Below, in pieces: positions 5,132 through 38,348 of a DNA stretch of 59,163 bases. The number at the start of each line of letters is the position of its first letter. The first letter of the stretch is position 1. The position numbers and the translations under genes were made by a program. The stretch comes from Gemmatimonadaceae bacterium. Lineage in GTDB: Bacteria > Gemmatimonadota > Gemmatimonadetes > Gemmatimonadales > Gemmatimonadaceae. The stretch is from positions 1 to 59,163 of the forward strand of contig DATMHT010000404.1 in NCBI GenBank assembly GCA_035554795.1, in the 5' to 3' direction. Under the pieces are notes generated by a model, which saw only the letters and a program-made list of their open reading frames with translations, ran no database searches and was not told the DNA's origin.

Positions 5132-5266
5132 GCGGTAAGTGGGGCCGGTGAGCGGGAGGCGGTACGCGGGAAGCGCAAGCCGTGAATCGCGGCGGGGCCG
5201 GGATCCCGACACGGGCGCCGGCCCCTCGTAGGTTCTCGCTTACCGCTCACCGCCTCCCGCTTACCG
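5130..5266. repeat. imperfect long palindromic element between convergent genes
   Basis: CGGTGAGCGGGAGGCGGT (5146-5163) pairs 17/18 with ACCGCCTCCCGCTTACCG (5249-5266). Inner 8-bp hairpin GGGGCCGG (5194-5201) / CCGGCCCC (5218-5225). The arms are built from GGTAAG/GGTGAG/GGGAGG units. The right arm overlaps the terC 3' end. Confidence 0.7.
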
Positions 5267-13242: not shown

Positions 13243-14871
13243 ATGCGTCCGGGACGATCCCCCGTCGTCGCCGAGTGTACGCCCCTCACGCGGGCGTACG
13301 CGCCGCCTAGCTACACCGCTCCGCCGCCACTGCGCGCGCCGGAGCCAGCGCCGGCCGTCGCCGGCGCCGCCGTGTTGCGCCACACGCCGGAGTCGGCGCT
13401 GGCCATCGCCGGCGCCGAAGAGTCGCGCCACGTACCGCGCGCGCGCCCGTACAACAGGCGCCTGTTCGTCGACTTGTGCCGGGCAGCCGACCCCGCCGTC
13501 GCGCTCCTCGTCTTCGGCGCCGTGTACGTCGTCGCCAACGCCGGCGAGATGCCGGGCGGCCTCGAGGGCTTCCTGCTGCTGCGGCTCTCGCTGGGCAACC
13601 TGTTGACGCTCGGCGCGTTCGCGTTCGCCTGGCAGCTCCTCTTCCTGCTGTTCGGCCTCTACGACGCCAGCGTGCCGCGCCGGCCGCTCGGCGAGTGGCA
13701 GAGCGTCGCCATGGCCGGCACCCTCGGCTCGCTGCTTGGCCTCGCGCCCGCGGCGTGGAGCCGGAGCGGCGCGTTCAGCGTCTGGGTGGTGCTCGTCGCC
13801 TGGCCGCTGACCGTGGCCGCGACGCTCGGCGTTCACGCCGCGCTCCGCCTCGTTGCGCGCCGCGGGGCGGCCCACCGCACGCAGCAGGTGATCATCGTCG
13901 GCAGCGGCCCGCTCGCGCTCCGGCTCTACCGAGAGGAGCTGAGCGATCCGGAGTCGCCGTACGACGTGCTCGGATTCGTGGATACGAACCCCGAGGTACA
14001 GTCGAGATTCGTGCGCGACCACCTGCTGGGCTCGCTCGAGGAGCTCGAGCAGCTGCTGATGCACACGGTCGTCGACGAGGTGCTGATCGCGCTGCCGGTC
14101 AAGTCCCACTACGACGAGATCCTGCGCGTGATCGAGGAGTGCGAGCGCGCGGGGGTCCAGTCGCGCTACAGCGCCGACGTCTTCCCGTCGCGCCTCGCGC
14201 AGCCGCGGGTGGAGACGCCCGAGAACGGCGGCCAGCCGGCCGTGGCCATGAAGGTCGTGAAGGACGATTACCGACTGGTCGTGAAGCGCGCGATCGACAT
14301 CGTGGCGTCGGTGGTCGCGCTCGTGATCCTCTCGCCCCTGTTCGCGCTGATCGCGATCGCCATCAAGGCCACGAATCCGGGGCCGGCGATCTTCGGTCAG
14401 GAGCGGTACGGGTGGAGGAAGCGCCAATTCACGATGTACAAGTTCCGCACGATGGTGACGAACGCCGAGGCGCTGCAGGGCGCGCTCGAGTCGCGCAACG
14501 AGGCGGCCGGGCCGGTCTTCAAGATCGCGAACGACCCGCGCGTCACCGCGTTCGGGCGCTTCCTGCGCAAGACGTCGCTCGACGAGCTGCCGCAGCTCTG
14601 GAACGTGCTCCGCGGCGACATGTCGCTCGTCGGCCCGCGCCCGCTTCCCCGGCGCGACGTGGACCGCTTCGACAGGGCGGCGCTGATGCGGCGCTTCAGC
14701 GTCGTGCCAGGGGTGACCTGCCTCTGGCAGATCAGCGGCCGCAGCGGGGTGTCCTTCGACCGCTGGATCGTGCTCGACCTCGAATACATCGACCGCTGGT
14801 CCCTCGCGCTCGACATGCAGATCCTCTGGAGGACCATCCCCGCGGTCGTCAAACGCCAAGGTGCCGTATGA
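13243..14871 (+). CDS. polyprenyl-phosphate glycosyl-1-phosphate transferase (priming 'bacterial sugar transferase', WbaP/WcaJ-like)
   Basis: 542 aa. N-terminal TM helices, Rossmann-like central region (VIIVGSGPLA). C-terminal Bac_transf motifs KRAIDIV...LSPLF, MYKFRTM, DPRVT..GRFLRKTSLDELPQLWNVLRGDMSLVGPRP. Confidence 0.9.
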   Translation: MRPGRSPVVAECTPLTRAYAPPSYTAPPPLRAPEPAPAVAGAAVLRHTPESALAIAGAEESRHVPRARPYNRRLFVDLCRAADPAVALLVFGAVYVVANAGEMPGGLEGFLLLRLSLGNLLTLGAFAFAWQLLFLLFGLYDASVPRRPLGEWQSVAMAGTLGSLLGLAPAAWSRSGAFSVWVVLVAWPLTVAATLGVHAALRLVARRGAAHRTQQVIIVGSGPLALRLYREELSDPESPYDVLGFVDTNPEVQSRFVRDHLLGSLEELEQLLMHTVVDEVLIALPVKSHYDEILRVIEECERAGVQSRYSADVFPSRLAQPRVETPENGGQPAVAMKVVKDDYRLVVKRAIDIVASVVALVILSPLFALIAIAIKATNPGPAIFGQERYGWRKRQFTMYKFRTMVTNAEALQGALESRNEAAGPVFKIANDPRVTAFGRFLRKTSLDELPQLWNVLRGDMSLVGPRPLPRRDVDRFDRAALMRRFSVVPGVTCLWQISGRSGVSFDRWIVLDLEYIDRWSLALDMQILWRTIPAVVKRQGAV

Positions 14872-15596
14872 CATCACCGATGCGTCCGTCGTCAGCGTGG
14901 CTCCGTGGGAGCGGCGTCGCCGCCTGCCACCGCCCGCGACTCGAAACCTCGCTCCTCTGCGCCGTGCTCGTCGCCGTCGCCGGCGTCACGCCGGTGTCGC
15001 GCGCCGCCGCGCAGTCGGACACGCTCGGCGTGCCGGCGATCGTCGTCCCCATGGACACGGTCAGGGGCCTGCGCCCCGGCGACGCGATCCGCGTCCGCGT
15101 GTGGCGCGAGCCCGACCTCACCGGCGACTTCGAGGTCGACGAGATGGGTGTGGCCGTCCTGCCGAAGATCGGACCGGTCAAGGTCGGCGGCATGTCGCCC
15201 GAGGCGCTGCGCGCGGTGCTCACGAAGACCTACGAGTCGTATCTGGTCCACACCGCCGTCGACGTCTCCCTGCTGCGCCGCGTGCAGGTGCTGGGCGCGG
15301 TGCGGAATCCCGGGCTCTACAAGACCGACGGCACGATGACGCTCGGGGACGCGCTGGCGCTCGCCGGCGGCGTCACGCCCCAGGGCAACGCGAAGGGCGT
15401 CCAGCTCACGCGCGAAGGCCGCGCGCTCAGTGGCAGCCTGTCGATGAACGATCGACTCGCGAACCTGCCGCTCAGGTCGGGCGACCAGATCTTCGTGCCG
15501 CAGCGGAACTGGGTCGCGCGGAACCCTGGCGTCCTCGTGTCGATGATCTCCTTGGCAGCGGGGATCACGACGAGAATCATGCTGAGTCACCGATAG
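14868..15596 (+). CDS. wza: polysaccharide export protein (OPX, Wza-like; Poly_export + SLBB)
   Basis: 242 aa. The ATG overlaps the upstream stop (ATGA). Signal peptide; GDAIRVRVW...DEMGVAVLPKIGPVKVGGMS and VQVLGAVRNPGLY...LGDALALAGG are typical Poly_export/SLBB segments. Confidence 0.85.
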   Translation: MTSPMRPSSAWLRGSGVAACHRPRLETSLLCAVLVAVAGVTPVSRAAAQSDTLGVPAIVVPMDTVRGLRPGDAIRVRVWREPDLTGDFEVDEMGVAVLPKIGPVKVGGMSPEALRAVLTKTYESYLVHTAVDVSLLRRVQVLGAVRNPGLYKTDGTMTLGDALALAGGVTPQGNAKGVQLTREGRALSGSLSMNDRLANLPLRSGDQIFVPQRNWVARNPGVLVSMISLAAGITTRIMLSHR

Positions 15597-15606
15597 GGAG
15601 CCCGAC

Positions 15607-18123
15607 ATGACTCGTCCCGGCCTGCCCGCGCCGCGGGAGAACAGAATGCTCGGCGCCGCCGTCGCCTCCCCGGTGGGAAGCTCCGACGACGGCACCTGGA
15701 TCGTGCGATACGGCGCCGGGTTGGTTCGCCGGCGCTGGCGCATGATCGCCGTCGTCGCGGTCGCGGTCGTGGCGGCGGCCACCGCCTACGTGCGGTCGCG
15801 GACGCCGCAGTACGAAGGCACGGCGACGGTGCGGGTGTACGAGAAGGACCGGCAGCTCCCGGTGGTCGACGTGGTGCCGTTCGACAACGACGTCACGACC
15901 GAGATGCAGATGCTGCAGAGTCGGACTCTCGCGGCGTACGTCGTGGACTCGCTCGGCCTGCGGCTGCAGCTCGTCGCGCCCGCCGACGCGCCGCGGAGTG
16001 GCGTGCTCTCGAGCGTCCGCGTCGCCGCGGACGCGCCGGTCGGCACGTACTCGCTGCGGCGACAGCCGAGCGGCGCGTACCTCCTGCAGGACCTCGCCGC
16101 CGGGGACACGCTCGCGACGGTCGGTCCGGGACAGCCCGTCGCCGTCCGCGGCGTGGCCCTCGCCGTCCAGCCGGCGCTCGACGCGGAGGAGAGCGTCGAC
16201 TTCGCGGTGACCGGCACCGACGAGGCGATCGCGGCGCTGAAGAGCGGCATCAGCGTCGCGCGGCCGCTGCCGACCGGTTCCGTCATCGCCGTCACGTACC
16301 GGTCGCCCGACCCGGCGCTCGCGCGCGACGTGCCGAACGTGCTCGTCGGCCGCTTCCTCCAGGATCGGCAGGACACGCGGCAGTCCTCGTCGCGCAGCAT
16401 GGCGGAGTTCCTCCGCGCCGAGATCGCGAAGATCTCGACGCGGCTCCGCGACGCGGAGGACTCGCTGCGCGTGTTTCGCGAGGCGCGCGGCGTCGTGAGC
16501 CTGCCGGACCAGGCGAGCAGCGACGTGCGCGAGCTGGCCGGGCTCGTCGAGCGGCGCAACACGGTCGCCACCGAGCGAACGGCGCTCGGCGCTCTCCTCG
16601 CGACCGCGGGTCCGACGTCCCGGGCCGACACCTCCCGGACGCCCAGTCCCTACCGTCACCTCGTCGCGTTCCCGACGCTCATCCAGAACCACGTCATCGG
16701 CCAGCTCCTCAGCTCCCTCACCGAGACCGAGGACCGGATCACGGAGCTGAGCACGCGACGCTCCGCCCAGGACCCCGACGTCAAGGTGCTCGTGGCGCGC
16801 GTCAAGTCGCTCGAGGAGCAGCTGCGCAACGTGTGCGACGCGTACCTCCAGGGTCTGACGAACGAGGCGGCGGCGCTCGACGGCACGATCGCGGACACGC
16901 GCCGCTCGATGGGCCGGCTCCCGGTCACCGAGATGCGGGTCCGCCAGCTCGAGCGCGATCAGCAGGGGCTGGAGCAGACGTACATGCAGCTGCAGACGAG
17001 ACTGAAGGACGCGGAGATCGCGGAAGTCTCGAGCGACCCGAGCGTACAACTCGTCGACGCCGCGGCGCTGCCGATCGCGCCGGTGAACACCCGGGCGCGT
17101 CTGCTGCTCGCCGGCTCGCTGGTCCTGGGCCTCCTCCTCGGGCTCGCCGCCGCGCTCGTCCGCGAGCTCGCCGACCCCGCCGTGCACACGCACGCCGACG
17201 TCGAGGCGGCCCTCGGCCGTCCGGTGCTGGCGATGATTCCGCGCATCGTGGAGGGCGGGGGGCGCCATCGCCTCTGGTCCTCGCGTGCGCAGCGTCTCCT
17301 CCCAGCCGTGTCGGGCGCGAACGGCGCCGACCGGGCGCCGCGGCTGGCCGCGCGCGCTCGGACCGCGCCGACGCCGACGCCGTTCACCCCACTCGCCGAC
17401 GCATACGACCGTCTCCACACGAACCTCGTGTGGTCGCAGCCCGAGGCGCCGACGCGGACGGTGCTCTTCACCAGCGCGCTGCCCGGCGACGGCAAGACGA
17501 CGAGTGCGACGAATTTCGCGATCACCCTGGTACAGCGCGGCCTGCGGGTCCTGCTCGTCGACGGCGACCTGCGGCGCGGCATGATCCACCGGGTCTTCAA
17601 GGCGCCGATCGGCCCGGGACTCTCGGAGCTCCTGGACGGATCGGTCGAGGTCGCGGAGGTCGTCCGCCGCGTGGAGATCGCCGGCGGCGGCTCGCTCGAC
17701 TACATCCCCGCCGGGCACATCATGGGCAACCCGACGCAGCTGCTGTCGTCCCCGCGCGCCGCTGCCCTCCTCGAGACGTTCGCCGGCCAGTACGACCGGG
17801 TCGTGATCGACTCGTCGCCGCTCAACGTCGTGTCGGAGGCGACGATTCTCGCCGGACTGGCCGATCGCGTCGTGTTCGTCGTCCGCGCGGGCGTCACGCC
17901 GTTCGACGCGCTCACCTACGCCGCCGAGCAGATGGCGCTGCTCAAGACACCGCTGGACGGGGTGGTGATGAACGCGGTCGACTTCGGTCGCGCCGCGAGC
18001 TACGACCCCGCGTACCGGTGGTATTCGCACGGCCAGCGGTACTACGCGGCGCAGGCGGAGGCGCGGCAGCGCCACCTCGCCGCGACCGAGCTCGACTCGC
18101 CAGCGGCGGCGGAGCGCGCATGA
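15607..18123 (+). CDS. wzc: polysaccharide co-polymerase with C-terminal BY-kinase (Wzc/GumC-like, PCP-2a type)
   Basis: 838 aa. Wzz-type N-terminus with TM helix, long coiled-coil periplasmic region, second TM helix. Walker A PGDGKTT, Walker A' LLVDGDLRRG, Walker B VVIDSSP. Tyr-rich tail (YDPAYRWYSHGQRYY). Confidence 0.9.
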   Translation: MTRPGLPAPRENRMLGAAVASPVGSSDDGTWIVRYGAGLVRRRWRMIAVVAVAVVAAATAYVRSRTPQYEGTATVRVYEKDRQLPVVDVVPFDNDVTTEMQMLQSRTLAAYVVDSLGLRLQLVAPADAPRSGVLSSVRVAADAPVGTYSLRRQPSGAYLLQDLAAGDTLATVGPGQPVAVRGVALAVQPALDAEESVDFAVTGTDEAIAALKSGISVARPLPTGSVIAVTYRSPDPALARDVPNVLVGRFLQDRQDTRQSSSRSMAEFLRAEIAKISTRLRDAEDSLRVFREARGVVSLPDQASSDVRELAGLVERRNTVATERTALGALLATAGPTSRADTSRTPSPYRHLVAFPTLIQNHVIGQLLSSLTETEDRITELSTRRSAQDPDVKVLVARVKSLEEQLRNVCDAYLQGLTNEAAALDGTIADTRRSMGRLPVTEMRVRQLERDQQGLEQTYMQLQTRLKDAEIAEVSSDPSVQLVDAAALPIAPVNTRARLLLAGSLVLGLLLGLAAALVRELADPAVHTHADVEAALGRPVLAMIPRIVEGGGRHRLWSSRAQRLLPAVSGANGADRAPRLAARARTAPTPTPFTPLADAYDRLHTNLVWSQPEAPTRTVLFTSALPGDGKTTSATNFAITLVQRGLRVLLVDGDLRRGMIHRVFKAPIGPGLSELLDGSVEVAEVVRRVEIAGGGSLDYIPAGHIMGNPTQLLSSPRAAALLETFAGQYDRVVIDSSPLNVVSEATILAGLADRVVFVVRAGVTPFDALTYAAEQMALLKTPLDGVVMNAVDFGRAASYDPAYRWYSHGQRYYAAQAEARQRHLAATELDSPAAAERA

Positions 18124-19043
18124 CGACGCTCGGGGGTGAGATGCTGACGCGCGCGGGCACCGCGGCGCCAGCCGGGTTCGAGGTGCCGTCGTCGCCGCTG
18201 TCGCCGCCGTCGGCGCGGGCGCTGCGCCGGACGAGGATCCAGGCGGCGCCGCGCTGGCCGACGCCGAACCTGCGCGAAGTGTGGGCCGCGCGCGGCCTGC
18301 TCCTCTTCCTGGTCTGGCGTGACGTGAAGGTGCGCTACGCGCAGACGGTGCTCGGGGCGTCCTGGGCGGTGCTCCAGCCGGTCGCGACGATGGTGGTCTT
18401 CACCGTGATCTTCGGCCGCTTCGCGCGCATTCCATCGGGCGGCGTCCCCTACGCCGTGTTCTCGCTCACCGCCCTGGTGGCCTGGAGCTACTTCGCCGGC
18501 GCGCTGTCGGGGGCGAGCAACAGTCTGCTGAGCAACCTCGGCCTCGTCACCAAGGTGTACTGCCCGCGGCTCGTCATCCCGCTCTCGGCGGTCTTCGCCG
18601 GGCTGCTGGATTTCGTGATCGCGTTCTCGATACTGCTCGTCGCGATCGCGGGGGCCGGCATCGTCCCGTCGCCCTGGGCGATTCTCGTCGTGCCGGTCTC
18701 GCTGCTGGCCGTGATGATGACCGCGGCGGGAGTCGGATGCTTCCTCGCGGCGATCAACATCCAGTACCGCGACGTGAAGCAGATCACCCCGTTTCTCGTG
18801 CAGCTCTGGATGTACGGCTCCCCCATCGTCTACCCGCTGTCGCTCGTGCCGGCGAAGTACCGCGCGCTCTACGCATTCAACCCGATGACCGGAGTCGTCG
18901 AAGGGCTGCGCGCGGCCATGCTGGGCACGGGGCCGATCCCCGCCGCGCTGATGGTCGCGTCCCTGGCGGTGAGCGCGGTGCTGCTCGCGTGCGGCACGCT
19001 GTACTTCCGTCACGTCGAGCGCGTCTTCGCCGACGTCGCCTGA
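18120..19043 (+). CDS. wzm: ABC-2 type polysaccharide exporter permease (Wzm-like)
   Basis: 307 aa with ATGA overlap to wzc. WRDVKVRYAQTVLGASWAVLQP motif and six hydrophobic helices typical of ABC-2/Wzm permeases. Confidence 0.85.
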   Translation: MTTLGGEMLTRAGTAAPAGFEVPSSPLSPPSARALRRTRIQAAPRWPTPNLREVWAARGLLLFLVWRDVKVRYAQTVLGASWAVLQPVATMVVFTVIFGRFARIPSGGVPYAVFSLTALVAWSYFAGALSGASNSLLSNLGLVTKVYCPRLVIPLSAVFAGLLDFVIAFSILLVAIAGAGIVPSPWAILVVPVSLLAVMMTAAGVGCFLAAINIQYRDVKQITPFLVQLWMYGSPIVYPLSLVPAKYRALYAFNPMTGVVEGLRAAMLGTGPIPAALMVASLAVSAVLLACGTLYFRHVERVFADVA

Positions 19044-19054
19044 GGATCGCGAGC

Positions 19055-20374
19055 ATGACGACGGTGATGATCGAGGCGGCTGGCCTCGGCAAGCGGTATC
19101 GCATCGGCGCGTTCCGCGGCCGACCGGGCAGCGAGAACCTTCGCGACGCCCTCGTGAGCGCGGCGCTGGCGCCGGCGCGGAACCTCCGCCGCCTGCGGGG
19201 CCTCGCCGATCCGGCGCGGCGCAGCGCCGACCCGTTGGTGTGGGCGCTCCGCGACGTGTCGTTCGAGGTCCGGGAGGGCGAGGTCCTCGGCATCATCGGG
19301 CGCAACGGCGCGGGCAAGAGCACGCTGCTCAAGATCCTGACGCGCGTCACGCAGCCGAGCGAAGGGCACGCGGACGTCTGGGGCCGCGTCGGCTCGCTGC
19401 TCGAGGTCGGGACGGGGTTTCACCCCGAGCTCACCGGGCGCGACAACGTGTACCTGAACGGCGCGGTGCTCGGGATGGACCGCGCCTACATCCGCCGCCG
19501 CTTCGACGAGATCGTGGAGTTCGCCGGCATCGGCGCGTACCTCGACACACCCGTCAAGCGCTACTCGAGCGGCATGTACGTCCGCCTCGCCTTCGCCGTC
19601 GCGGCCCATCTCGAGCCGGAGATCATGATCGTCGACGAGGTGCTCGCGGTCGGCGACGCGGAGTTCCAGCGCAAGTGCCTGGCGAAGATGGAAGACATCG
19701 CCCACGGCGGGCGCACGGTGCTCTTCGTCAGCCACAACCTGCCCTCGGTCCAGCGGCTCTGCCCGCGCGCGATCATGCTGCAGGCCGGCCGGATCGTCGC
19801 CGACGGGCCGACCGCGGAGGTCGTCGACAGTTACCTGACGGGCGGTGCTGGGCACGAAGCGTATCCGGGGCACTGGATAGACCTCACGCAGGCGGCCCGG
19901 ACCGGCTCCGGCGTCGCGCGCTTCACGGCGGCTCGCTTCAGCAGCGGGAGCGCCCGGCATCAGCTGCAGCCGTTCACGCATGGCCGCCTGGAATTCACGC
20001 TGACGGCGGCGTCGGATGCGCCGCGCGACGTCAACCTTTCGGTCAGCATCTGGAACCAGAGCGGGACGAAGCTGATCAACGCCGACACGACCACCCTGGA
20101 GCGCATGGTCGCGTTGCGGCACGGGACGAACAGCTGCCGCTTCACCATCGAGCGCCTCTACCTCAAGCCCGGCGTGTACGTGGTCGGGTTCTGGCTCGGC
20201 GACCGCGTCGGAGAGACGCTGGACCGGATCGAGTCGGCGTTCCGCATCGAGGTCGTGGACGCCCACCCGGAGCGGCCCGGCGTCCGCCTCGACTCGCGCT
20301 ACGACGGCCCGGTGGCGTGTCCATTCGAGGTCGTGGAGGTCCCGGAGCGGGAGGTAGAGTCGTGCGCGAGCTGA
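19055..20374 (+). CDS. wzt: ABC polysaccharide exporter ATPase with C-terminal extension (Wzt-like)
   Basis: 439 aa. Walker A GRNGAGKST, signature YSSGM, Walker B IMIVDE. About 190 extra C-terminal residues resemble the Wzt C-terminal glycan-binding domain in size and position. Confidence 0.85.
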   Translation: MTTVMIEAAGLGKRYRIGAFRGRPGSENLRDALVSAALAPARNLRRLRGLADPARRSADPLVWALRDVSFEVREGEVLGIIGRNGAGKSTLLKILTRVTQPSEGHADVWGRVGSLLEVGTGFHPELTGRDNVYLNGAVLGMDRAYIRRRFDEIVEFAGIGAYLDTPVKRYSSGMYVRLAFAVAAHLEPEIMIVDEVLAVGDAEFQRKCLAKMEDIAHGGRTVLFVSHNLPSVQRLCPRAIMLQAGRIVADGPTAEVVDSYLTGGAGHEAYPGHWIDLTQAARTGSGVARFTAARFSSGSARHQLQPFTHGRLEFTLTAASDAPRDVNLSVSIWNQSGTKLINADTTTLERMVALRHGTNSCRFTIERLYLKPGVYVVGFWLGDRVGETLDRIESAFRIEVVDAHPERPGVRLDSRYDGPVACPFEVVEVPEREVESCAS

Positions 20375-21819
20375 GCGTGATCATCCCGACCTACAACGGC
20401 GCCGCGCGCCTCCGCCGGTGCCTGGAAAGCTTCGGCAGGCAGACGCTGCCGGCCGAACGCTTCGAGGTCGTCGTGGTGCTCGACGGCTCGACCGACGAGA
20501 CCGCGCGCATGCTGGCGGACAGCGACACGCCCTTCGCGCTGGCGGTGATCGAGCAGCGGAACCAGGGGGCGGCGGCCGCGCGCAATGCGGGAGCCGCCGC
20601 CGCCCGCGGCAGGTACTGTGTGTTCGTGGACGACGACATCGTGGCCTCGCCGGAGCTGCTCGCCGAGCATCTCCGAGTGCAGCGCGACCGGCGCGGCGTG
20701 GCGGGGCTGGGCGCCATCCCGACCGTGGTCGCGGCCGACGCCGGGTGGCTGCCGCGTCGCGTTGCGGAAGATTTCAACGCGCACTACGCGAGGCTGGCCA
20801 GCGGCGCGCGCGCCCCGTCCTGGCGCGTTTGCTACGGCGGCAACCTGTCCGTGCCGCGCGCCGCATTCCGCGCGGTCGGTGGGTTCGCGTGCGACATGCG
20901 TCGCGGGCACGACGTGGAGCTCGGCTACCGGCTCGCGGAGTACGGGCTCGAGTTCGCGTACATCGCCGGGGCGGCGGGCACGCAGGAGCTGAGTAAGCGC
21001 GGCCGTGCCCTGTATTCCGACTTCGAGCACTACGGAGTCGCGGCCGTCGAGATCTTTCGCCGGCATCCACAGACGCTGCCGGAGGTGATTCCCGACTTCG
21101 GCGCGCCGGGCGCTGGCCCGGTGTGGCTGCGGCGTCTTCTGCTGGCGACGGAGATTCCACCACACGTTATCGGGACGGTCGTCGGCGCGCTCGCAGACGA
21201 GGAACGCTGGAGCCGGGCCTGGTACCGCCTCGTGCACCACTACTGCTACTGGCGCGGCGTGCGGCGAGCTCTGGCCGATCCCGGGAGCTGGTGGCAGCTG
21301 ACCCACGGCACCCCGGTCCTCGTCTATCGGGCGCTCGGGGCGGCAGGTCAGCCGGTGGAGCGCGATCGGGTTCCGCTCGCCCACTTCGCACGCCAGCTCG
21401 CCTGGCTGAAGCGGGCCGGGTACCGCGTACTCGGCCTGGAGCAGTATCGGCAGTTCCGGCGCGAACACCGCCTCCCCCCTCGTCGGTCCGTGGTCATCGT
21501 GCTCGGTGACGGCTGTGCCGACAGCTGCTCGCTGGCGGATGCCGTGCTGCGCCGACACGGCTATTCTGCGGCGGCTCTCCTGGCCGGTGGCGACGTCAGC
21601 GGAGAAGACGCGACGGTGGTGATCCCTCCGTCGCGGAGCGGAGTGAATAACCACCGGACGCCGCCGCAGGCTCTGCAGCCCACGGAGATCCACGGTACGG
21701 ATTCCCTCGTGCGGTTCGCATGGAAGGTGGCGCGTGCGAGCGGGAGTCTGCCACAGCCCGGGGCGAGGAGCTCGTTCCTGCACCTGGTCCGGCGGCGCAG
21801 CCTGCAGGTAGCGCGATGA
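20362..21819 (+). CDS. family-2 glycosyltransferase fused to a truncated, degenerate NodB-like segment
   Basis: GTG at 20362, a 13-nt overlap with wzt. SVIIPTYNG...VVVLDGSTDET...FVDDD GT-A motifs. C-terminal ~120 aa align to the N-terminal half of the NodB deacetylase at 27397 (VPLAHFARQLAWLKRAGYRVLGLE / SVVIVLGDGCADS vs VTPRAFAAQMRWLALAGYTPVGLD / PVVITFDDGFASC), with FDDG changed to LGDG. Confidence 0.75.
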   Translation: MRELSVIIPTYNGAARLRRCLESFGRQTLPAERFEVVVVLDGSTDETARMLADSDTPFALAVIEQRNQGAAAARNAGAAAARGRYCVFVDDDIVASPELLAEHLRVQRDRRGVAGLGAIPTVVAADAGWLPRRVAEDFNAHYARLASGARAPSWRVCYGGNLSVPRAAFRAVGGFACDMRRGHDVELGYRLAEYGLEFAYIAGAAGTQELSKRGRALYSDFEHYGVAAVEIFRRHPQTLPEVIPDFGAPGAGPVWLRRLLLATEIPPHVIGTVVGALADEERWSRAWYRLVHHYCYWRGVRRALADPGSWWQLTHGTPVLVYRALGAAGQPVERDRVPLAHFARQLAWLKRAGYRVLGLEQYRQFRREHRLPPRRSVVIVLGDGCADSCSLADAVLRRHGYSAAALLAGGDVSGEDATVVIPPSRSGVNNHRTPPQALQPTEIHGTDSLVRFAWKVARASGSLPQPGARSSFLHLVRRRSLQVAR

Positions 21820-23213
21820 GCACCCTCGAGCTGCCTGACACCGGGCGCCTCCGGCGGGAGAACGAAAGCACGGAGACAGGGCTGCGCGGCCAGCGGCCGA
21901 CGGTGGCCCTGATGCCCTGGGGTATCCTCGACGACTTCATCGAGCCCCTCGGCATCTCGCTCGAAGCGTTCTGCCGCGAGTTCACGGGCAGCTACGCATT
22001 CGGCTATGCCGACGCGCTGCAGCAGGCGGGCGTTCGCGTCGTGCTGATCTACGTCTCCCGTCGGATCACCTCGCCCATCCGCTGCAGACACGGCGCTACC
22101 GGAGCGACCCTCTGCATTCTACCGGCGCCCCGGATCTATCGCGCATTGCGTCGGCGTGTCCGCGCGCCGCGCGCGCGCACCGTGCGCGGCATGTTCGGCG
22201 CACTGACGGGGTTCCGGCGCCTCCTCTTTCCGGCGCTGGCGGTGCTGCGGGAGACGATCCTCTACCTCGAGACGCCGGTCCGGAGCCTCGCCGCGGAGCT
22301 CCGTCGCGAGAGGTGCACCGCCCTCCTTTGCCAGGAGTACGAGTACCCCCGCTTCGACGTGTGCGCCGCGCTGGGCCGCCTGCTTCGTCTGCCGGTCTTC
22401 GCCACCTTCCAGGGAGGCGATTACCAACGAAGCCGGATCGAGGCGTACCTTCGGCCGATTACGGTCCGTGGTTGCGCGGGGCTGATCATCGCCAGTCGAG
22501 CAGAAGCGACCAGGGTGCGGGCTCGCTACGGCGTGTCCCCGGCGAGGATCGCCGCGGTCGCGAACCCGATCGACCCGACGGTGTGGCGCCCCTTCGACCG
22601 CGGCGCCGCGCGCGACAGGCTGAGTATTCCCGCCGCGGCGCGCGTGGTCGCCTGGCACGGCCGCGTGTCGATGTGGAAGAAGGGTCTCGACGTCCTGCTC
22701 GACGCCTGGAGGCTGCTCCGCACCGAGGTCGCCGGGGACCTCCGCCTGATCCTGGTGGGAACTGGCGTGGACGCGGACCGCCTGCGCCGGATGCTCGGGG
22801 ATCCCGCCGGCCAGGGCATCATTTGGATCGACGACTTTCTCCAGGATCGTGACGCCGTTCGGCAGTACCTCGCCGCCGCCGACGTGTACGCCTTTCCCTC
22901 GCGCCACGAGGGATTCCCGGTCGCACCCATCGAGGCCATGGCCTGCGGGCTCCCGATCGCCGCCGCGGATGCGCGCGGGGTCGCCGACATCCTCGCCGAC
23001 GGCGAAGCGTCGGGCGGGGTGATGGTGCCGCGCGAGGATCCTCGCGCACTCGCCCGCGCCCTCCGCCGCTTCGTGGAGGACGAGCAGTGGTGTCGGCGGA
23101 TGGGAGACCGGGCTCGTCACAACGTGCTCACCCGCTTTTCCACCGAGGCGGTCGGCGGTCAGCTGCGCGCGGTACTCTGTCCATCCGATCGGGAGACTGC
23201 CCGTGCCGTCTGA
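21816..23213 (+). CDS. family-4 (GT-B, Glycos_transf_1) glycosyltransferase
   Basis: ATG at 21816 (ATGA overlap). C-terminal E-x7-E region SRHEGFPVAPIEAMACGLP. Confidence 0.8.
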   Translation: MSTLELPDTGRLRRENESTETGLRGQRPTVALMPWGILDDFIEPLGISLEAFCREFTGSYAFGYADALQQAGVRVVLIYVSRRITSPIRCRHGATGATLCILPAPRIYRALRRRVRAPRARTVRGMFGALTGFRRLLFPALAVLRETILYLETPVRSLAAELRRERCTALLCQEYEYPRFDVCAALGRLLRLPVFATFQGGDYQRSRIEAYLRPITVRGCAGLIIASRAEATRVRARYGVSPARIAAVANPIDPTVWRPFDRGAARDRLSIPAAARVVAWHGRVSMWKKGLDVLLDAWRLLRTEVAGDLRLILVGTGVDADRLRRMLGDPAGQGIIWIDDFLQDRDAVRQYLAAADVYAFPSRHEGFPVAPIEAMACGLPIAAADARGVADILADGEASGGVMVPREDPRALARALRRFVEDEQWCRRMGDRARHNVLTRFSTEAVGGQLRAVLCPSDRETARAV

Positions 23214-23241
23214 AGCCGTGCCCGGAACGGCAGGAAGCGGC

Positions 23242-24225
23242 ATGACGGGACGGCCACTCGTCTCGGTAGTCGTGCCGTTTTTCGACAGCGCCGCGTTTCT
23301 CGAGGAGTGCATCGAGAGCGTCCTCGGGCAGACGTACACGCGCTGGGAGCTGCTGTTGGTCGACGATGGGGCGACCGACGGGAGCACCGCGATCGCGCAG
23401 CGCTACGCCGCGCGCAACCCGGGGCGGGTGACATATCTGACGCACCCCGAGCGGGCGAACCGCGGCGTGAGCGGCTCGCGCAATCTCGGACTGCGTCGGG
23501 CTCAGGGCGAATTCATCGCCTTCCTCGACGCGGACGACGTGTGGGTGCCGGAGAAGTTGGAGGAGCAGGTCACCTGTCTCGAGCAGCACCCCGACGCGGT
23601 CATGGTCTACGGCAGCATGCGGTACTGGTACTCCTGGACCGGCGCACCGGAAGACGCGGCGCGTGACCACGTGCCCGACCAGGGCGGCTCGCCCGGCACG
23701 GTGTCGCCGCCGCCACAGCTGCTGGTCGGCATACTCGAGGGATCCGCGCGGGCGCCGCTGCCGTCGGACGCGCTGCTGCGCCTCTCCACCGTGCGCGAAG
23801 TCGGAGGCTTCGAGGAGGAGCGCAAGTTCTCGGTCTACGAAGACCGGGTGTTCTTCGTCAAGATAGCGTTGAGTGGCGGGGTATTTCTCGCCCCTCGATG
23901 CTGGGTCAAGTACCGCCAGCACGAGAACTCGAGCAGCTCCGTCGTCGACCGGACGGCGAAGCGAGCGGAGGCTCGGCGGGCGTACCTCGTCTGGCTCGAC
24001 CACTACCTCTCGGAGCAGGGCTATCGGGGGACCCGACTGTGGTCGCTCGCGCATTCGCGCTCGCGGCCGCCTCGGCACCCGCTCACGTCGTGGGCGCTCC
24101 ACCAGCTGCAGCGCGGCCGGCGCGCCGCGCTGGCCTGCAAGCGCCGAGTGCAGACGGGAGTATTCCGGCACAAGGCGTCACTCGCGGGCGCCGCGGACGG
24201 CTCCTCGCAGCGAGGCGCATCATGA
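23242..24225 (+). CDS. family-2 glycosyltransferase
   Basis: VSVVVPFFDSAAFLEECIESVLGQTY, LLLVDDGATDGS and AFLDADD motifs. ATG 23242 is preceded by AGGAAG. GTG 23203 is an alternative start overlapping the upstream gene. Confidence 0.8.
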   Translation: MTGRPLVSVVVPFFDSAAFLEECIESVLGQTYTRWELLLVDDGATDGSTAIAQRYAARNPGRVTYLTHPERANRGVSGSRNLGLRRAQGEFIAFLDADDVWVPEKLEEQVTCLEQHPDAVMVYGSMRYWYSWTGAPEDAARDHVPDQGGSPGTVSPPPQLLVGILEGSARAPLPSDALLRLSTVREVGGFEEERKFSVYEDRVFFVKIALSGGVFLAPRCWVKYRQHENSSSSVVDRTAKRAEARRAYLVWLDHYLSEQGYRGTRLWSLAHSRSRPPRHPLTSWALHQLQRGRRAALACKRRVQTGVFRHKASLAGAADGSSQRGAS

Positions 24226-25013
24226 CGCTGCGCAGCAGGGCGAAACACGTCGCCGAGAGCGTCCTCCCGCTCGGCGCGTACGCGTGGCTCCGCAGCCGAG
24301 TGGGGGACGGAGAGTACTCCCCTCCCGCGCGGCGCGTGCGGTTCGGCGACCTTCGCCGCCTCACGCCGATCAGCCGCCGGTGGGGGAAGGACCGGGGCGG
24401 CACGCCGATCGATCGCTACTACATGGAGCGCTTCCTCGGGGCGCACGCCGCCGACATCCGTGGCCGCGTCCTCGAAGTCGGCGACGACAGCTACACGCGC
24501 CGTTTCGGCGGCGAGGCCGTCGACCGGCGTGACGTGCTGCACGTCGTCCCGGGTAACCCGGCGGCAACGATCGTCGCCGATCTCGCGCAGGGCGACGCCA
24601 TCCCGACGGCTGCCTTCGACTGCGTCATCCTCACGCAGGTTCTTCAGTTCCTGATCGATCCGCAGGCGGCCGTCCGCACCGTGCGTCGCATCCTCAAGCC
24701 CGGTGGCGTGGTGCTGGCCACGGTCGCCGGCATCAGCCAGATCAGCCGCTGGGACATGAAGCGTTGGGGCGAGTACTGGCGGTTCACGACGTGTTCTGCC
24801 GAGCGGCTCTTCGCCGTCGCGTTTCCGCCGGACCACCTGTCCGTCGAGGCACACGGCAACGTGCTCTCGGCGATCGCCTTCCTGCACGGCCTGGCGGCGG
24901 AGGAGCTCCGCCCGTCGGAGCTGGACTACCGCGACGCCGATTACGAGATGCTCATCACCGTGCGGGCGCGAAAGCCCGAGAGCGCGGAGGGTGAGCGGGG
25001 CGGCGCGCCATGA
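24222..25013 (+). CDS. class I SAM-dependent methyltransferase
   Basis: 263 aa with ATGA overlap. RVLEVGDDSY (motif I-like), FDCVILTQVLQF and ILKPGGVVL are typical of the Methyltransf_11-type fold. Confidence 0.7.
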   Translation: MTLRSRAKHVAESVLPLGAYAWLRSRVGDGEYSPPARRVRFGDLRRLTPISRRWGKDRGGTPIDRYYMERFLGAHAADIRGRVLEVGDDSYTRRFGGEAVDRRDVLHVVPGNPAATIVADLAQGDAIPTAAFDCVILTQVLQFLIDPQAAVRTVRRILKPGGVVLATVAGISQISRWDMKRWGEYWRFTTCSAERLFAVAFPPDHLSVEAHGNVLSAIAFLHGLAAEELRPSELDYRDADYEMLITVRARKPESAEGERGGAP

Positions 25014-25033: not shown

Positions 25034-25241
25034 AAGCGTTGCTCGATGAGCGCGTGCAACTCGAAGCCGCGACACGAGAGACGACGTGGACGACGTGGAC
25101 GACTTCGAGGACTTACATAGTCGACGACGGTTCCACTCGGCGCCCGCTGTGGGGCGCCGGTGCTGCATGGAGCGGGACCGGGTGAATCCGTCCGCATCCG
25201 CAGGCATGGCTGTACCGCAGGCCAAATTCGTGGAGTTCAAG

Positions 25242-27323
25242 ATGTCTGTGCAACCGCCGCGGCCTCGCCGGACCTCGCCGCCTGGATTCATGGCCGTCGC
25301 GGCGATTGCCCTGCTCGTCGCCGCCTGCGACCCCCAGCGTCTCACCGGTCCGGGTGACGGCCCCAGGCCGCCGAGAGTTCAAGCCGCGCTGGCGGCGGGA
25401 TCACCGACGTCCATCGACGTCTTCATCCACGCCCACCAGGACGACTGGCAGTTGTTCATGGGCGACAGGGTGTACCACGCGCTCCAGAACGGCGATCGAA
25501 TCGTGTTCGTGTACGCCACCGCTGGCGACGCGGGCCGCGAGCAGCTCTACTGGGAGACGCGGGAGGCGGCGGTGCAGGCATCCGTCGACTCGATCGCCGG
25601 CCCCGGCGCCTGGTCCTGCGCCACCCAGACGATCTCCACGCATCCGATCCGGCGCTGCACGAAGGCGAACACCGTCAGCTACTACATGCGCATGCCGGGC
25701 GGCAACGGCTCGGACGGGCTGGGCTACGGAAAGGGCAGCCTGGAGCGGCTACGCGACAGTGCGCAGGCCACGACCGCGATCGACGGGTCGACGACGTACC
25801 AGACGTGGAGCGACTTCTACACCACCGTCGGCCGGATCGTCGAGTTCGAATCCAGTGACCCGCTGCTCGCATCCGTCAAAGTCCATGCGCCGGACTACAG
25901 CCGTACGCTCAACCCGAATGACCACCCGGATCACTGGGTGACCGCGGACGCCGTCCAGGCCGCGGCCGCGCCGCGCGGCTGGAGCATGTCGTGGTACGTG
26001 GATTACGAGACGCGCAACAAGTCCATCAACCTGAGCACCGCCGACCACGACATCAAGCAGAAGGAGTTCTACGCGTACGACGACGTGATGTACGCGGCCG
26101 GATACGAGACGCTGAAGAGCGACTCGTGGTACCAGGCGTGGCTCTGGCGCACCTACCTGCGGGTCGTCCAGCCCGGCGCGCCGAGCGCCCCGTCGAGCCT
26201 GAGCGCGACGGCCGCGTCCACGTCGCAGATCGACCTCGTGTGGCGGGACAACTCGGGTAACGAGAGCGGCTTCAAGATCGAGCGCGCCCCGGACGTCAAC
26301 GGCGCCCCCGGCACCTACGCGCAGATCGCGGTCGTGGGAACGAACGTGACCGGCTACAGCGACACCGGCCTGGACGCCGGCACCAGGTACTGGTACCGCG
26401 TCCGCGCGTACAACGGTGCGGGCAACTCCGGGTATTCGAACGCGGCATCTGCCACCACCACCGTCCTGGCGGGGCCGCCTGCCGCGCCGTCGAACCTCGC
26501 GGCCACGGCGCTCTCCTCGGCCGAGATCGGCCTGACCTGGACGGACAACGCCGCGAACGAGACGGAGTACCGGGTGCATCGGAGCACCACGGCGGGCTTC
26601 ACTCCGGACGCGACCAATCAGATCGCGACGCTGGCCGCCGGCAGCACCTCGTACGACGACAGCGGCGTGACCCCGTCGACCACCTACTACTACCGCGTGG
26701 TCGCCGCGAACTCCGCCGGCACCGCGGCGAGCAACGAAGCGAGTGCGACCACTCCGGCCGCCCTGCAGCTACCCTCCGCACCGACGAATCTCGTCGCGAC
26801 GGCTGCGTCCACGTCGCAGATCGACCTCGCATGGAATGACAACGCGAGCAACGAGAGCGGCTTCAGGATCGAGCGCGCCCCGGACGTCGGCGGCGTCCCC
26901 GGCACGTACGCGGAGGTCGCGGTCGTCGGAGCGAACGTGACCGGTTACAGCGACGCGGGCCTCGCCGCCGGCACGCGCTACTGGTACCGCGTCCGCGCGT
27001 ACAACACGGACGGCAACTCGGCGTACTCGAATGCCGTCGCGGCCCGCACGAACGACGTGCCGCCCAGCAACCTGACGGTGGTCCGGTCCAGCAGCGGCGC
27101 GAAGGCCAAGGGATCGAACAAGGCCCAGCTGAGCTGGACGAAGGGCACGGCGCCCAGCGTGGACCTCTGGCGCAACGGCAGCAGGATCGCCGCGGGCACC
27201 GGCAACTCCGGCTCCTACAGCGACAACCTCGGCAACAAGGTGGGCACCTTCAGCTATCAGGTGTGCCTTGCCGGGAAGACCGGCACCGCCAACTGCAGCA
27301 ACGCCGCCCAGGTGACGTTCTAG
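25242..27323 (+). CDS. secreted PIG-L/LmbE-family deacetylase-like lipoprotein with three fibronectin type III repeats
   Basis: Lipobox LLVAAC after the ATG at 25242. IHAHQDDW and NDHPDHW motifs of the LmbE/PIG-L fold. Three FN3-like repeats (LVWRDNSGNESGFKIER...RYWYRVRAYN, and two more). Confidence 0.8.
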   Translation: MSVQPPRPRRTSPPGFMAVAAIALLVAACDPQRLTGPGDGPRPPRVQAALAAGSPTSIDVFIHAHQDDWQLFMGDRVYHALQNGDRIVFVYATAGDAGREQLYWETREAAVQASVDSIAGPGAWSCATQTISTHPIRRCTKANTVSYYMRMPGGNGSDGLGYGKGSLERLRDSAQATTAIDGSTTYQTWSDFYTTVGRIVEFESSDPLLASVKVHAPDYSRTLNPNDHPDHWVTADAVQAAAAPRGWSMSWYVDYETRNKSINLSTADHDIKQKEFYAYDDVMYAAGYETLKSDSWYQAWLWRTYLRVVQPGAPSAPSSLSATAASTSQIDLVWRDNSGNESGFKIERAPDVNGAPGTYAQIAVVGTNVTGYSDTGLDAGTRYWYRVRAYNGAGNSGYSNAASATTTVLAGPPAAPSNLAATALSSAEIGLTWTDNAANETEYRVHRSTTAGFTPDATNQIATLAAGSTSYDDSGVTPSTTYYYRVVAANSAGTAASNEASATTPAALQLPSAPTNLVATAASTSQIDLAWNDNASNESGFRIERAPDVGGVPGTYAEVAVVGANVTGYSDAGLAAGTRYWYRVRAYNTDGNSAYSNAVAARTNDVPPSNLTVVRSSSGAKAKGSNKAQLSWTKGTAPSVDLWRNGSRIAAGTGNSGSYSDNLGNKVGTFSYQVCLAGKTGTANCSNAAQVTF

Positions 27324-27396: not shown

Positions 27397-28248
27397 ATGC
27401 GGCGCGTCATGACTCGCCGAGCCGATGTCCCGGCTGCGCCGCCGCGGGCGGCGGAGCGTGCGCTCGCCGGCCGCACGGTGCCGATCCTGATGTACCATCA
27501 GGTGAGCCCGTGGCCGGCGAAGGGATTCGAGAAGTACACGGTCACGCCACGCGCCTTCGCCGCGCAGATGCGCTGGCTCGCGCTGGCGGGGTACACGCCG
27601 GTCGGCCTCGACGCCCTGCTCGCGCACCGCGCTACCGGCGCGCCGCTGCCGCGGCGGCCGGTCGTCATCACGTTCGACGACGGCTTTGCGAGCTGCGTCG
27701 AGCACGCCGTGCCGGTCCTGCAATCCCGCGGCTTCACCGCCACGTTCTACCTGGTCGCGGGGCTGATGGGGCAGCCGAGCCGGTGGCTGTTGCGCGAGCG
27801 CGGCGTCGAGTTCCCGCTCATGGACCGGAGCGCCGCCCGCGAGCTGCAGGCAGCCGGGTTCACCTGCGGCGCGCACTCGGTGACGCACCCGCGCCTGGCG
27901 CAGCTCCCGGCGGCGGAGTGCCGCGACGAGCTACGGCGCTCGCGCGACCTGCTCGAGGAGCAGCTCGGGAGCGAGGTGGCGCACCTGGCCTACCCGTTCG
28001 GCTCCTACGACGCGCGCGTGCGCGATCTGGCGGCGGAAACCGGATATCGCTCGGCGTGCACGGTCGAGATCAGCCTCTCGGCCCCCGACGACGATCCGCT
28101 GGCGCTGCACCGCGTGCCTGTCGTCGGCTACGAGTCGCTCGCCGACTTCGCCTGCCGCCTGCGCACGGCGCGCGCGGCGTCGGAGATACTGCGGCGCGCG
28201 TGGCGGCGCGTGCGCCGGCGCCTCGTCGGCGGGAGGGCGTCGGCATGA
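27397..28248 (+). CDS. polysaccharide deacetylase (NodB homology domain, CE4)
   Basis: ITFDDG (motif 1), GAHSVTHP (motif 2) and LAYPFGSY (motif 3). Start ATG 27397 (GGGGTGAAGG upstream) or ATG 27409 (MTRRAD). Confidence 0.88.
   Translation: MRRVMTRRADVPAAPPRAAERALAGRTVPILMYHQVSPWPAKGFEKYTVTPRAFAAQMRWLALAGYTPVGLDALLAHRATGAPLPRRPVVITFDDGFASCVEHAVPVLQSRGFTATFYLVAGLMGQPSRWLLRERGVEFPLMDRSAARELQAAGFTCGAHSVTHPRLAQLPAAECRDELRRSRDLLEEQLGSEVAHLAYPFGSYDARVRDLAAETGYRSACTVEISLSAPDDDPLALHRVPVVGYESLADFACRLRTARAASEILRRAWRRVRRRLVGGRASA
27401..27432 (+). repeat. direct repeat copy 2 (start of NodB deacetylase)
   Basis: GGCGCGTCATGACTCGCCGAGCCGATGTCCCG. See copy 1 at 25002-25033, 2399 bp upstream. Confidence 0.85.
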
Positions 28249-29261
28249 GCGCCGCACCGCGCATCTCCGTCGTGATCCCCACCTACGAGCGCGGCGCGTC
28301 CGTCCGCCGCACCCTCGACGCGCTCGCGCGCCAGACGCTGCCCGCCGCCGAGTTCGAGGTCGTCGTGTCCGTCGACGGCTCGACCGATGGTACGAGCGAG
28401 ATGGTCGCCGCGTACGCGGCGCCGTACGCGCTGCGCGCCGTCGAGTCACGGACGAACCGCGGGCGCGCCGCGGCCTGCAACGCCGGCGTGCGCGAGAGCC
28501 GCGGCGCGATCGTGGTCCTGCTGGACGACGACATGGAGCCGCGTCCCGCGTTCCTCGAGGCGCACCTGGCGGCGCACGCGGGCGGCGCGCGGCGCGGCGT
28601 GCTGGGCGCGGTACCGATCGACGTGGACGCGAGCGCGTCGCCGACGGTCCGGTTCGTCGGGACGAAGTTCAACCGCCACCTCGAGTCGCTCGCCCGCAGC
28701 GGAGAGATCGGCGTCCGCGCCTTCTACAGCGGGAACTTCTCCATCCCCCGCGACCTGCTGCTCGAGGTGGGTGGGTACGACGAGTCGTTCCACGTCTACG
28801 GCAACGAGGACGTCGACCTCGCCGCGCGCCTGCTCGCGGCCGGCGTCGCGCTCGCGTACAGCGCGGAGGCGGTGGCGGGCCAGCACTACGAGAAGGACGT
28901 GGCGGGCCTCGCGCGCGACCACGTCGCGAAGGGGATGACCGCCGTGCTGTGCGCGCGCAAGCACCCGGAGATGATCGCGCGCCTGCGCATCGGCACGTTC
29001 CGCCAGGGCTCGCGCAAGTGGCGCCTCGCCCGGGCGGCGCTGCTCGCGGTGAGCGACTCGTCGGGGCGCGTGCCGGGCGCGGCGATCGCGCTCCTGCGGT
29101 GGGCCGAGCGCCACCGGCCGGCGGAGCTGCTGCGCTACTACCCGCTCGCGCTCGACTACTTCTTCTGGTGCGGCGTCCGGCGGGCGCTGCGGGAGGGCGG
29201 CGGGGAGCAGCCCGTCGTCGCCGCGATCTTCGGGCGCCCGACCGGGGGACGGTTCGCATGA
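28245..29261 (+). CDS. family-2 glycosyltransferase (paralogue of the 20362 GT2 domain)
   Basis: ATGA overlap. SVVIPTYERG...VVVSVDGSTDGT...LLDDD. The C-terminal FFWCGVRRAL matches YCYWRGVRRAL in the 20362 product. Confidence 0.85.
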   Translation: MSAAPRISVVIPTYERGASVRRTLDALARQTLPAAEFEVVVSVDGSTDGTSEMVAAYAAPYALRAVESRTNRGRAAACNAGVRESRGAIVVLLDDDMEPRPAFLEAHLAAHAGGARRGVLGAVPIDVDASASPTVRFVGTKFNRHLESLARSGEIGVRAFYSGNFSIPRDLLLEVGGYDESFHVYGNEDVDLAARLLAAGVALAYSAEAVAGQHYEKDVAGLARDHVAKGMTAVLCARKHPEMIARLRIGTFRQGSRKWRLARAALLAVSDSSGRVPGAAIALLRWAERHRPAELLRYYPLALDYFFWCGVRRALREGGGEQPVVAAIFGRPTGGRFA

Positions 29262-38343: not shown

Positions 38344-38348
38344 TCTCG

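Follow-up and report, generated by a model that had tools for sequence, protein, structure and literature searches.

The locus described here raises the question of whether a Wzm/Wzt-type ATP-binding cassette (ABC) exporter can pass its glycan to a conduit made of a polysaccharide co-polymerase fused to a bacterial tyrosine kinase domain (a BY-kinase PCP-2a) and a polysaccharide export protein of the outer membrane (OPX), or whether two pathways share one operon. It lies in a 59-kb stretch of DNA, hereafter the window, which is the entire contig C404 of a metagenome-assembled genome (MAG) of a soil Gemmatimonadaceae bacterium (4.5 Mb, 72% GC, 97% complete, 581 contigs). In reviews, PCP-2a proteins are assigned to Wzy-dependent systems and PCP-3 proteins to ABC-dependent systems (PMC12220298), and our literature search found no published description of an ABC exporter combined with PCP-2a and OPX. 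We favour a single pathway in which an ABC-dependent route uses the PCP-2a/OPX conduit, to which we would give a probability of about 0.6 on sequence comparisons, and the combination probably represents a genuine variant of these pathways that has yet to be described. Four observations favour this view: the export core recurs in four diverged taxa, related loci carry either a Wzx flippase or Wzm/Wzt, several genomes bearing such hybrid loci have no detectable Wzx, and the linkage recurs across phyla. An earlier examination of the DNA alone (the sequence-only reading) had offered one pathway or two; the comparative evidence favours the first, short of proof, and leaves some probability with the second.

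An operon joining OPX and PCP-2a to Wzm and Wzt

Genes were called in the window from a GC3 (third-codon-position GC) frame plot together with Pfam and NCBIfam scans, and it should be noted that the gene calls and the counts of transmembrane (TM) segments are crude. The OPX, PCP-2a, Wzm and Wzt genes are consecutive (14868-20374) in a compact operon which has 21 genes, all on the + strand (13243-41805, ~28 kb; Table 1). The sequence-only reading had placed wza, wzc, wzm and wzt in this order with a 4-nt overlap between wzc and wzm; its coordinates were exact by frame plot and Pfam, and the overlap is an ATGA junction of the same kind as that joining the gene for the initiating phosphoglycosyltransferase (PGT) to OPX. 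The OPX–PCP and Wzm–Wzt gaps are 10–11 nt, intergenic gaps of appreciable size (~73 nt each) occur only on either side of the PIG-L/fn3 gene, and terminator-like sites within the operon show no excess over chance. None of the operon genes is disrupted, and their GC content by codon position is as expected of real genes. The ~860 nt 5' of the PGT gene (12377-13242) have no coding GC3 pattern and may be a long leader or promoter region.

Profile searches bore out the proposed classification of the co-polymerase (Wzz plus BY-kinase) and of the ABC pair (ABC2_membrane, ABC_tran and Wzt_C). The N-terminal part of the PCP matches Wzz (34 bits) and GNVR (44 bits) with hydrophobic segments near residues 46 and 500, and the kinase part has Walker A (ALPGDGKT), Walker A' (VLLVDGDLR) and Walker B (VVIDSSP) motifs, five tyrosines among the last 40 residues, and a score of 126 with the NCBIfam BY-kinase domain model TIGR01007 (cut-off 108). 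It thus has both sequence features of a PCP-2a, a Wzz-type domain in which two TM segments bracket a periplasmic coiled-coil stretch and a fused kinase with Walker motifs and a tyrosine tail, and may autophosphorylate; the sole low-molecular-weight protein tyrosine phosphatase gene of the genome is on contig C510, outside the window. The ABC pair is of the O-polysaccharide type, with an ABC-2 permease adjacent to an ATPase bearing a Wzt_C domain that scores above the Pfam cut-off (30.4 bits), and no Wzm paralogue was found in the source genome by tblastn. The PGT scores 383 with TIGR03025 (cut-off 296).

The OPX protein is short and Wza-like, with Poly_export and SLBB domains above Pfam cut-offs. 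In its AlphaFold2 (AF2) model, which has a predicted local confidence (pLDDT) of >93 for residues 70–242, a PES domain and a single SLBB domain are accompanied by a helix of 22 residues at the C terminus (220–241, pLDDT ~96); Foldseek matches the model to Wza (7xff and 2j58) with E ~1e-12. At their C termini, 42 homologues share the motif RSWISRNPG and, after it, a hydrophobic helix, and on the basis of this and the modelled helix we group the protein with the short OPX proteins with C-terminal helices, which have been suggested to be Wza-like and to need no β-barrel partner (Schwabe et al., PMC9601211).

Recurrence of the arrangement across lineages

Wzm homologues were sampled from 401 genomes of the phylum Gemmatimonadota, 137 of which were positive. 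No PCP was found within 1.5 kb in any of the 29 closest Wzm loci, and at this scale the arrangement seemed to be a one-off, a view which was overturned by wider flanks (locus context was viewed to ±10 kb) and by other lineages. The sister genome G401 has the order PGT-OPX-PCP-NodB-Wzm-Wzt on two contigs which overlap by 431 nt at 98% identity, and two metagenome contigs carry the PGT-OPX-PCP-Wzm-Wzt core with the same PCP/Wzm overlap, 4 nt in L204 (where GT2 and further genes follow) and likewise in L206. This recurrence indicates that the arrangement is not an assembly chimera. The core proteins of these three loci share 42–75% identity with those of the window, with the PCP down to 42–55%, and the arrangement has therefore persisted through long divergence. 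A TerC gene stands upstream of the operon in both the window (5261-6238, - strand) and L206 (638-1618, - strand), so that the chromosomal surroundings of the hybrid locus are shared by diverged relatives.

In a second hybrid lineage, which is independent of the first, the Wzm proteins form a separate, well-supported clade. In G077 the order is PGT-OPX-PCP-X-Wzy_C-Wzm-Wzt-GT4 on one strand with overlapping genes, and in G230, G307 and G286 it is PGT-OPX-PCP-X-Wzy_C-...-Wzt-Wzm within 9–13 kb. The X protein (L100:12335-13003 and L101:7858-8583; 222–241 aa, ~3 TM segments, no Pfam match) is conserved, always lies between PCP and Wzy_C in this lineage, and has no counterpart in the window. A T2SSE-type secretion ATPase gene lies divergently 5' of PGT in the G077 and G230 loci (L100:6127-7317 and L101:1847-3034, both - strand), accompanied in G077 by a tetratricopeptide repeat (TPR) protein, which suggests that the ATPase gene is a conserved neighbour of these loci.

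The closest relatives of the window PCP (L087 and others) are found in loci ordered OPX-PCP-PGT-Wzx-GT4-WecG-Wzy_C, and the window has homologues of every gene in such loci (26–57% identity) except Wzx. On these sequence comparisons the operon looks like a Wzy-type locus with Wzm/Wzt and their biosynthetic partners in the place of Wzx. Of the Gemmatimonadota OPX-PCP-PGT loci that we examined, nine had Wzx without Wzm/Wzt, seven had Wzm/Wzt without Wzx (the window, G401, G077, G230, G307, G286 and G019), and none had both; as the loci are related to one another, this complementarity is a pattern and not a statistic.

The sequence-only reading had called the combination unusual, which holds against the textbook scheme but not as a statement of rarity. 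We collected the 80 best prokaryotic loci from a Wzm alignment search, with one genome per species, and found a BY-kinase PCP within 10 kb in 27, with OPX too in 13 of these. The linked loci come from Acidobacteriota, Armatimonadota, Anaerolineae, Desulfobaccales and Nitrospira, their PCPs have Walker motifs and mostly 4–11 tail tyrosines, and in several (L131, L165, L169, L129 and L150) the PCP gene stands immediately upstream and on the same strand. Pfam scans of the 25 polytopic open reading frames in the 27 loci identified 12 as Wzy_C and four as GT-C/PMT_2-like, with no flippase of the MOP superfamily. On the Wzm tree the PCP-linked state requires 15 changes, of which well-supported branches force at least nine, and it is clustered (0/500 shuffles were as low); the link has therefore arisen repeatedly and been passed on by descent. 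Two hybrid loci of Acidobacteriota (L181:8421-9932 and L182:8445-9935) encode a PMT_2/GT-C-like protein with eight TM segments directly 5' of Wzm, at the place of Wzy_C in other loci, a hint that the periplasmic step may be open to different enzymes of the GT-C fold.

Flippases, the Wzy_C protein and rival explanations

The absence of a MOP flippase from the window, as the sequence-only reading had it, was upheld: a search of the whole source genome with PF01943 (Polysacc_synt) and PF13440 (Polysacc_synt_3) gave matches only on contigs C94, C243 and C251, and none on C404. The C251 match is MurJ-like, leaving two Wzx genes outside the window, one inside an exosortase-type locus with EpsH-like, EpsI-like, WecB and glycosyltransferase (GT) genes (C94), and one accompanied by its own PGT and Wzy_C (C243). 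TM counting identified the PGT, Wzm and Wzy_C as the only polytopic proteins of the operon and revealed no cryptic flippase among its products. The 429-aa protein and X protein of the G230/G077 loci were also considered as flippases and are not MOP-like.

We also used a phylum-specific Wzx profile. In four control genomes it recovered Wzx genes on which it had not been trained, but it misses the C243 protein, and its sensitivity is therefore incomplete. Neither the phylum profile nor PF01943 or PF13440 gave an above-cut-off Wzx match in G230 (100% complete), G307 or G286, and PF13440 and the phylum-specific profile gave none in G401 (the PF01943 search covered the other three genomes instead). 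G230 and G307 each have one OPX gene, situated in the hybrid locus. The OPX/PCP-2a/Wzy_C sets of these genomes must do without a canonical Wzx. The source genome also has a second OPX/PCP locus (C68:6706-14023) with PCP, OPX, a small PGT and Wzy_C on a 44-kb contig with neither Wzx nor Wzm/Wzt, and flippase-less OPX/PCP loci are thus not confined to the window.

The sequence-only reading had proposed that the Wzy_C-family protein of the window is either a polymerase or a WaaL-type ligase, and that it is the only one there; we confirmed the latter for the operon. A separate group of Wzy_C proteins occurs once per genome (C234 in the source genome, G230:C7, G204:C3 and G085:C24; 44–56% identity) and by sequence is a better candidate for WaaL. 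The window protein falls outside this distinct conserved group and is unlikely to be the housekeeping WaaL, a reading which we rejected. Its homologues are found in Wzx/Wzy loci (37–42% identity to the Wzy_C of the Wzx-containing L095, L097 and L106), and the hybrid Wzy_C proteins of G230 and G077 are closest to the C243 Wzy_C which adjoins Wzx. Wzy-type enzymes therefore pair with either translocase. Polymerase and ligase otherwise both stand for the hybrid proteins, that of the window included, as sequence alone does not separate them.

Several points weigh against the single pathway. Either of the Wzx proteins of C94 and C243 could act in trans, and claims of absence are limited by the completeness and fragmentation of the MAG. 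Two canonical OPX-PCP-PGT-WecG-GT4 loci encode a protein of 413–455 aa with 10–11 TM segments and no recorded Pfam match directly 5' of Wzy_C (L207:13868-15109 and L208:18481-19848), a candidate for either a divergent flippase or an additional polymerase, and Pfam-negative flippases may therefore exist elsewhere, with none in the operon. (L208 was also considered as a same-polymer locus using Wzx for Wzm/Wzt, and was rejected as its GTs are only ~30–36% identical to those of the window.) In 19 of the 20 best Gemmatimonadota Wzm loci, Wzm/Wzt have no nearby OPX, PCP, PGT or Wzy_C and are partnered by homologues of the window methyltransferase, GT2, NodB, GT2 and long GT4, which shows that the ABC module works without OPX/PCP. 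The operon has kept GT4e, WecG and Wzy_C of a Wzx/Wzy-type ancestor and looks like two joined gene sets, a polymerase would have no obvious role if the chain were finished in the cytoplasm, and polysaccharide loci often cluster without shared function, as do cps and rfb in E. coli and Klebsiella.

These points lead to a rival which we consider doubtful but would not dismiss, namely that two independent pathways share the transcription unit, one an ABC-dependent O-antigen pathway and the other a Wzy-dependent exopolysaccharide (EPS) or capsule pathway. Wzm/Wzt, the methyltransferase, GT2, NodB and the long GT4 would make up the first, with ligation to lipid A-core by the C234 WaaL-like protein, and PGT, WecG, GT4e, Wzy_C, PCP-2a and OPX the second, with repeat units flipped by the C243 or C94 Wzx. 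Both modules do occur alone (the ABC module in the 19 loci above and OPX-PCP-PGT-Wzx-...-Wzy_C in nine), they are adjacent but divergently transcribed in G019, and the adjacent cps (wza-wzb-wzc) and rfb (wzm-wzt) loci of E. coli O9a:K30 and Klebsiella provide a precedent. The source genome has the separate conserved WaaL-like gene as well as the two Wzx genes which keep this rival in contention. Yet each of the two Wzx genes already has partners in a locus of its own, hybrid-bearing G401, G230, G307 and G286 have no detectable Wzx, no examined locus has both Wzx and Wzm/Wzt, and the Wzm start lies inside the PCP stop codon, an overlap kept in L204 and L206. The tight gene coupling, the second independent hybrid lineage and the wzm mutant of Vibrio cholerae NRT36S discussed below likewise speak for a single pathway.

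It is very unlikely that the OPX/PCP/Wzy_C half is a non-functional remnant left after the ABC module displaced Wzx, with only an ABC-dependent glycan being made; Wzx does occupy the equivalent place in the closest canonical relatives and the ABC module is self-sufficient elsewhere, but the genes are intact with a coding GC pattern, the kinase motifs and tyrosine tail are preserved, and retention of the core in G401, L204 and L206 despite PCP identities of 42–55% implies selection. More improbable still is that PCP-2a and OPX export a polymer from elsewhere in the genome, for example a product of a synthase or of the exosortase-type locus, and are merely neighbours of this operon. Gemmatimonadota OPX-PCP pairs without PGT or Wzy within 10 kb do exist (L088, L093, L096, L098, L099 and L105), but in the window OPX overlaps PGT and PCP overlaps Wzm, and other OPX/PCP pairs in the genome (C73, C68 and C502/C49) are available for other polymers.

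Remaining genes, proposed route and known systems

The other operon genes are listed in Table 1 with the loci in which homologues were noted. The ~570-aa C-terminal extension of the 952-aa GT4 has no Pfam match and no PDB sequence match, and a homologous piece forms a separate stretch adjoining Wzt in L056; a WbdD-like kinase in this protein was considered but gained no Pfam or PDB sequence support, and we make no claim for one.

Table 1. Genes of the operon, with their positions in the window, supporting matches and noted homologues.
Product	Position	Strand	Matches and features	Homologues
Initiating PGT, large WbaP/WcaJ-type, 542 aa	13243..14871	+	Bac_transf 228 bits, CoA_binding_3	
Short OPX, 242 aa	14868..15596	+	Poly_export 60.6 bits, SLBB 51.6 bits	
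PCP-2a with BY-kinase domain, 838 aa	15607..18123	+	Wzz, GNVR, AAA_31	
Wzm, ABC-2 permease	18120..19043	+	ABC2_membrane 65 bits; start overlaps PCP stop	
Wzt, ABC ATPase with C-terminal carbohydrate-binding domain	19055..20374	+	ABC_tran 78.8 bits, Wzt_C 46.2 bits	
GT2, 485 aa	20362..21819	+	Glycos_transf_2 98 bits	
GT4, start codon uncertain	21720..23213	+	Glyco_trans_1_4 109 bits	Adjoins Wzt in L037
GT2	23203..24225	+	Glycos_transf_2 122 bits	46–58% identity, beside Wzm/Wzt in L037, L049, L050, L053, L056, L204, L206
S-adenosylmethionine (SAM) methyltransferase	24222..25013	+	Methyltransf_11/23	52–63% identity, beside Wzm/Wzt in L044, L046, L049, L050, L056, L102, L206
PIG-L-type deacetylase with three fn3 domains	25086..27323	+	Pfam	
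NodB-type polysaccharide deacetylase	27397..28248	+	Polysacc_deac_1 92.7 bits	66% identity, between PCP and Wzm in sister genome G401
GT2	28245..29261	+	Pfam	Beside Wzm/Wzt in L043, L053, L056
GT4, 952 aa, ~570-aa C-terminal extension	29258..32116	+	GT4 domains (Pfam)	
GT4	32123-33313	+	Pfam	
GT4	33310-34404	+	Pfam	
GT2	34401-35471	+	Pfam	
Wzy_C-family polytopic enzyme (Wzy-type polymerase or ligase)	35474..37057	+	Wzy_C 61.5 bits, at least 8 TM segments	
GT4	37054..38343	+	Pfam	47–49% identity to GT4 in the canonical Wzx/Wzy relatives L087, L089, L090, L092
PD40 beta-propeller-like protein	38340..39686	+	Weak PD40 repeat match only; no NCBIfam match	
WecG/TagA-family GT	39705..40484	+	Glyco_tran_WecG 170 bits	52–57% identity to homologues in the canonical relatives L087-L094
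GT1-like protein, last operon gene	40492..41805	+	Glyco_trans_1_2 24 bits	

In the single pathway we favour, and judging by the families present, the PGT would start the glycan on undecaprenyl phosphate and ~11 GTs and the modifying enzymes would extend it at the cytoplasmic face. A cap at the chain end is probable by comparison with E. coli O8/O9a; the methyltransferase, whose homologues accompany Wzm/Wzt in relatives, is the candidate for adding it, and the cap would be read by Wzt_C. Comparative genomics suggests that the lipid-linked glycan then crosses the inner membrane through Wzm/Wzt and not Wzx, after which the Wzy_C-family enzyme would join or transfer it in the periplasm. Its passage to the surface may fall to PCP-2a, as an octamer under the control of tyrosine autophosphorylation, and to the short Wza-like OPX, with a C-terminal helix expected to cross the outer membrane. 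Overall, the periplasmic half of a Wzy-dependent capsule or EPS system would be fed by an O-antigen-type ABC exporter. What the sequences themselves show is the content, order and coupling of the genes, their motifs, the conserved core, its complementarity with Wzx and its recurrence. We put forward as a tentative possibility the more specific proposal that Wzm/Wzt replaced Wzx in a Wzy-type machine and deliver pre-assembled blocks linked to undecaprenyl pyrophosphate (Und-PP), which a Wzy-type enzyme joins under PCP-2a control for export by OPX, and that phyla including Gemmatimonadota and Acidobacteriota have repeatedly evolved this.

The textbook scheme pairs PCP-2a tyrosine kinases and Wza with Wzx/Wzy-dependent assembly, and ABC exporters with PCP-3 proteins or WaaL. 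If O-antigen-type Wzm/Wzt do routinely feed PCP-2a, OPX and Wzy_C, then the inner-membrane and periplasmic halves of these systems are interchangeable modules, BY-kinase regulation reaches ABC-dependent polymers, and the assignment of pathways by marker genes in EPS and capsule surveys mislabels many loci in soil phyla. An ABC-fed, Wzy-finished route would also extend the textbook set of three pathways. The Wzx-less genomes and the Wzx-or-Wzm/Wzt complementarity together make a concrete hypothesis which can be tested by knock-outs.

The operon resembles known systems in parts. Like the E. coli O8/O9a system (WbdD, Wzm/Wzt; PMC3482155), it has an ABC-2 permease and a Wzt_C ATPase, many cytoplasmic GTs acting on a polyprenol carrier, and a methyltransferase which travels with the transporter. 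However, O8/O9a starts with WecA and not a WbaP-type PGT, relies at its end on WaaL for ligation and Lpt for transport and uses neither PCP-2a nor OPX, and a WbdD-like kinase is not detectable in the operon. With the group 1 capsule and colanic acid systems (E. coli Wza-Wzb-Wzc, WbaP/WcaJ, Wzx, Wzy; PMC8285477, PMC12881504) the operon shares the WbaP/WcaJ-type PGT, a Wzy_C-family membrane enzyme, a PCP-2a with Walker A/A'/B motifs and a tyrosine cluster, and a Wza-fold OPX with a C-terminal helix. It differs in that the operon lacks Wzx, the window lacks Wzb, and the OPX is smaller (242 aa with one SLBB domain, compared with ~360 aa and two in group 1 Wza).

The order OPX-PCP-permease-ATPase is that of the Neisseria ctrABCD genes, and the group 2/3 capsules (KpsMT-KpsE-KpsD and ctrABCD) are also alike in that a finished polymer is passed from an ABC exporter to a PCP/OPX conduit. 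Unlike these, the PCP here is a PCP-2a with a kinase and not a kinase-less PCP-3, the ATPase carries Wzt_C, and Pfam scans found no Capsule_synth match among the operon proteins which might indicate KpsC/KpsS-type Kdo-linker enzymes. The carrier is presumably Und-PP here and not the lyso-phosphatidylglycerol-Kdo lipid of group 2/3. A single polymer serves both WaaL and a Wza/Etk-type exporter in the group 4 (O-antigen) capsule of E. coli, and this could be a model for a single Und-PP-linked pool feeding both a lipopolysaccharide ligase (the C234 group) and the PCP-2a/OPX exporter, although the group 4 polymer is made by Wzx/Wzy and not by an ABC route. An E. coli HS preprint (PMC13622650) was also considered as a precedent and set aside as it concerns separate pathways. 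The nearest precedent is V. cholerae O31 NRT36S, in which a single region carries wzm, wzt and wza-wzb-wzc (PMC1847822); unlike the operon, this region also has wzx and wzy, and the interplay of the parts was left unresolved in that work, but a transposon insertion in wzm abolished the capsule.

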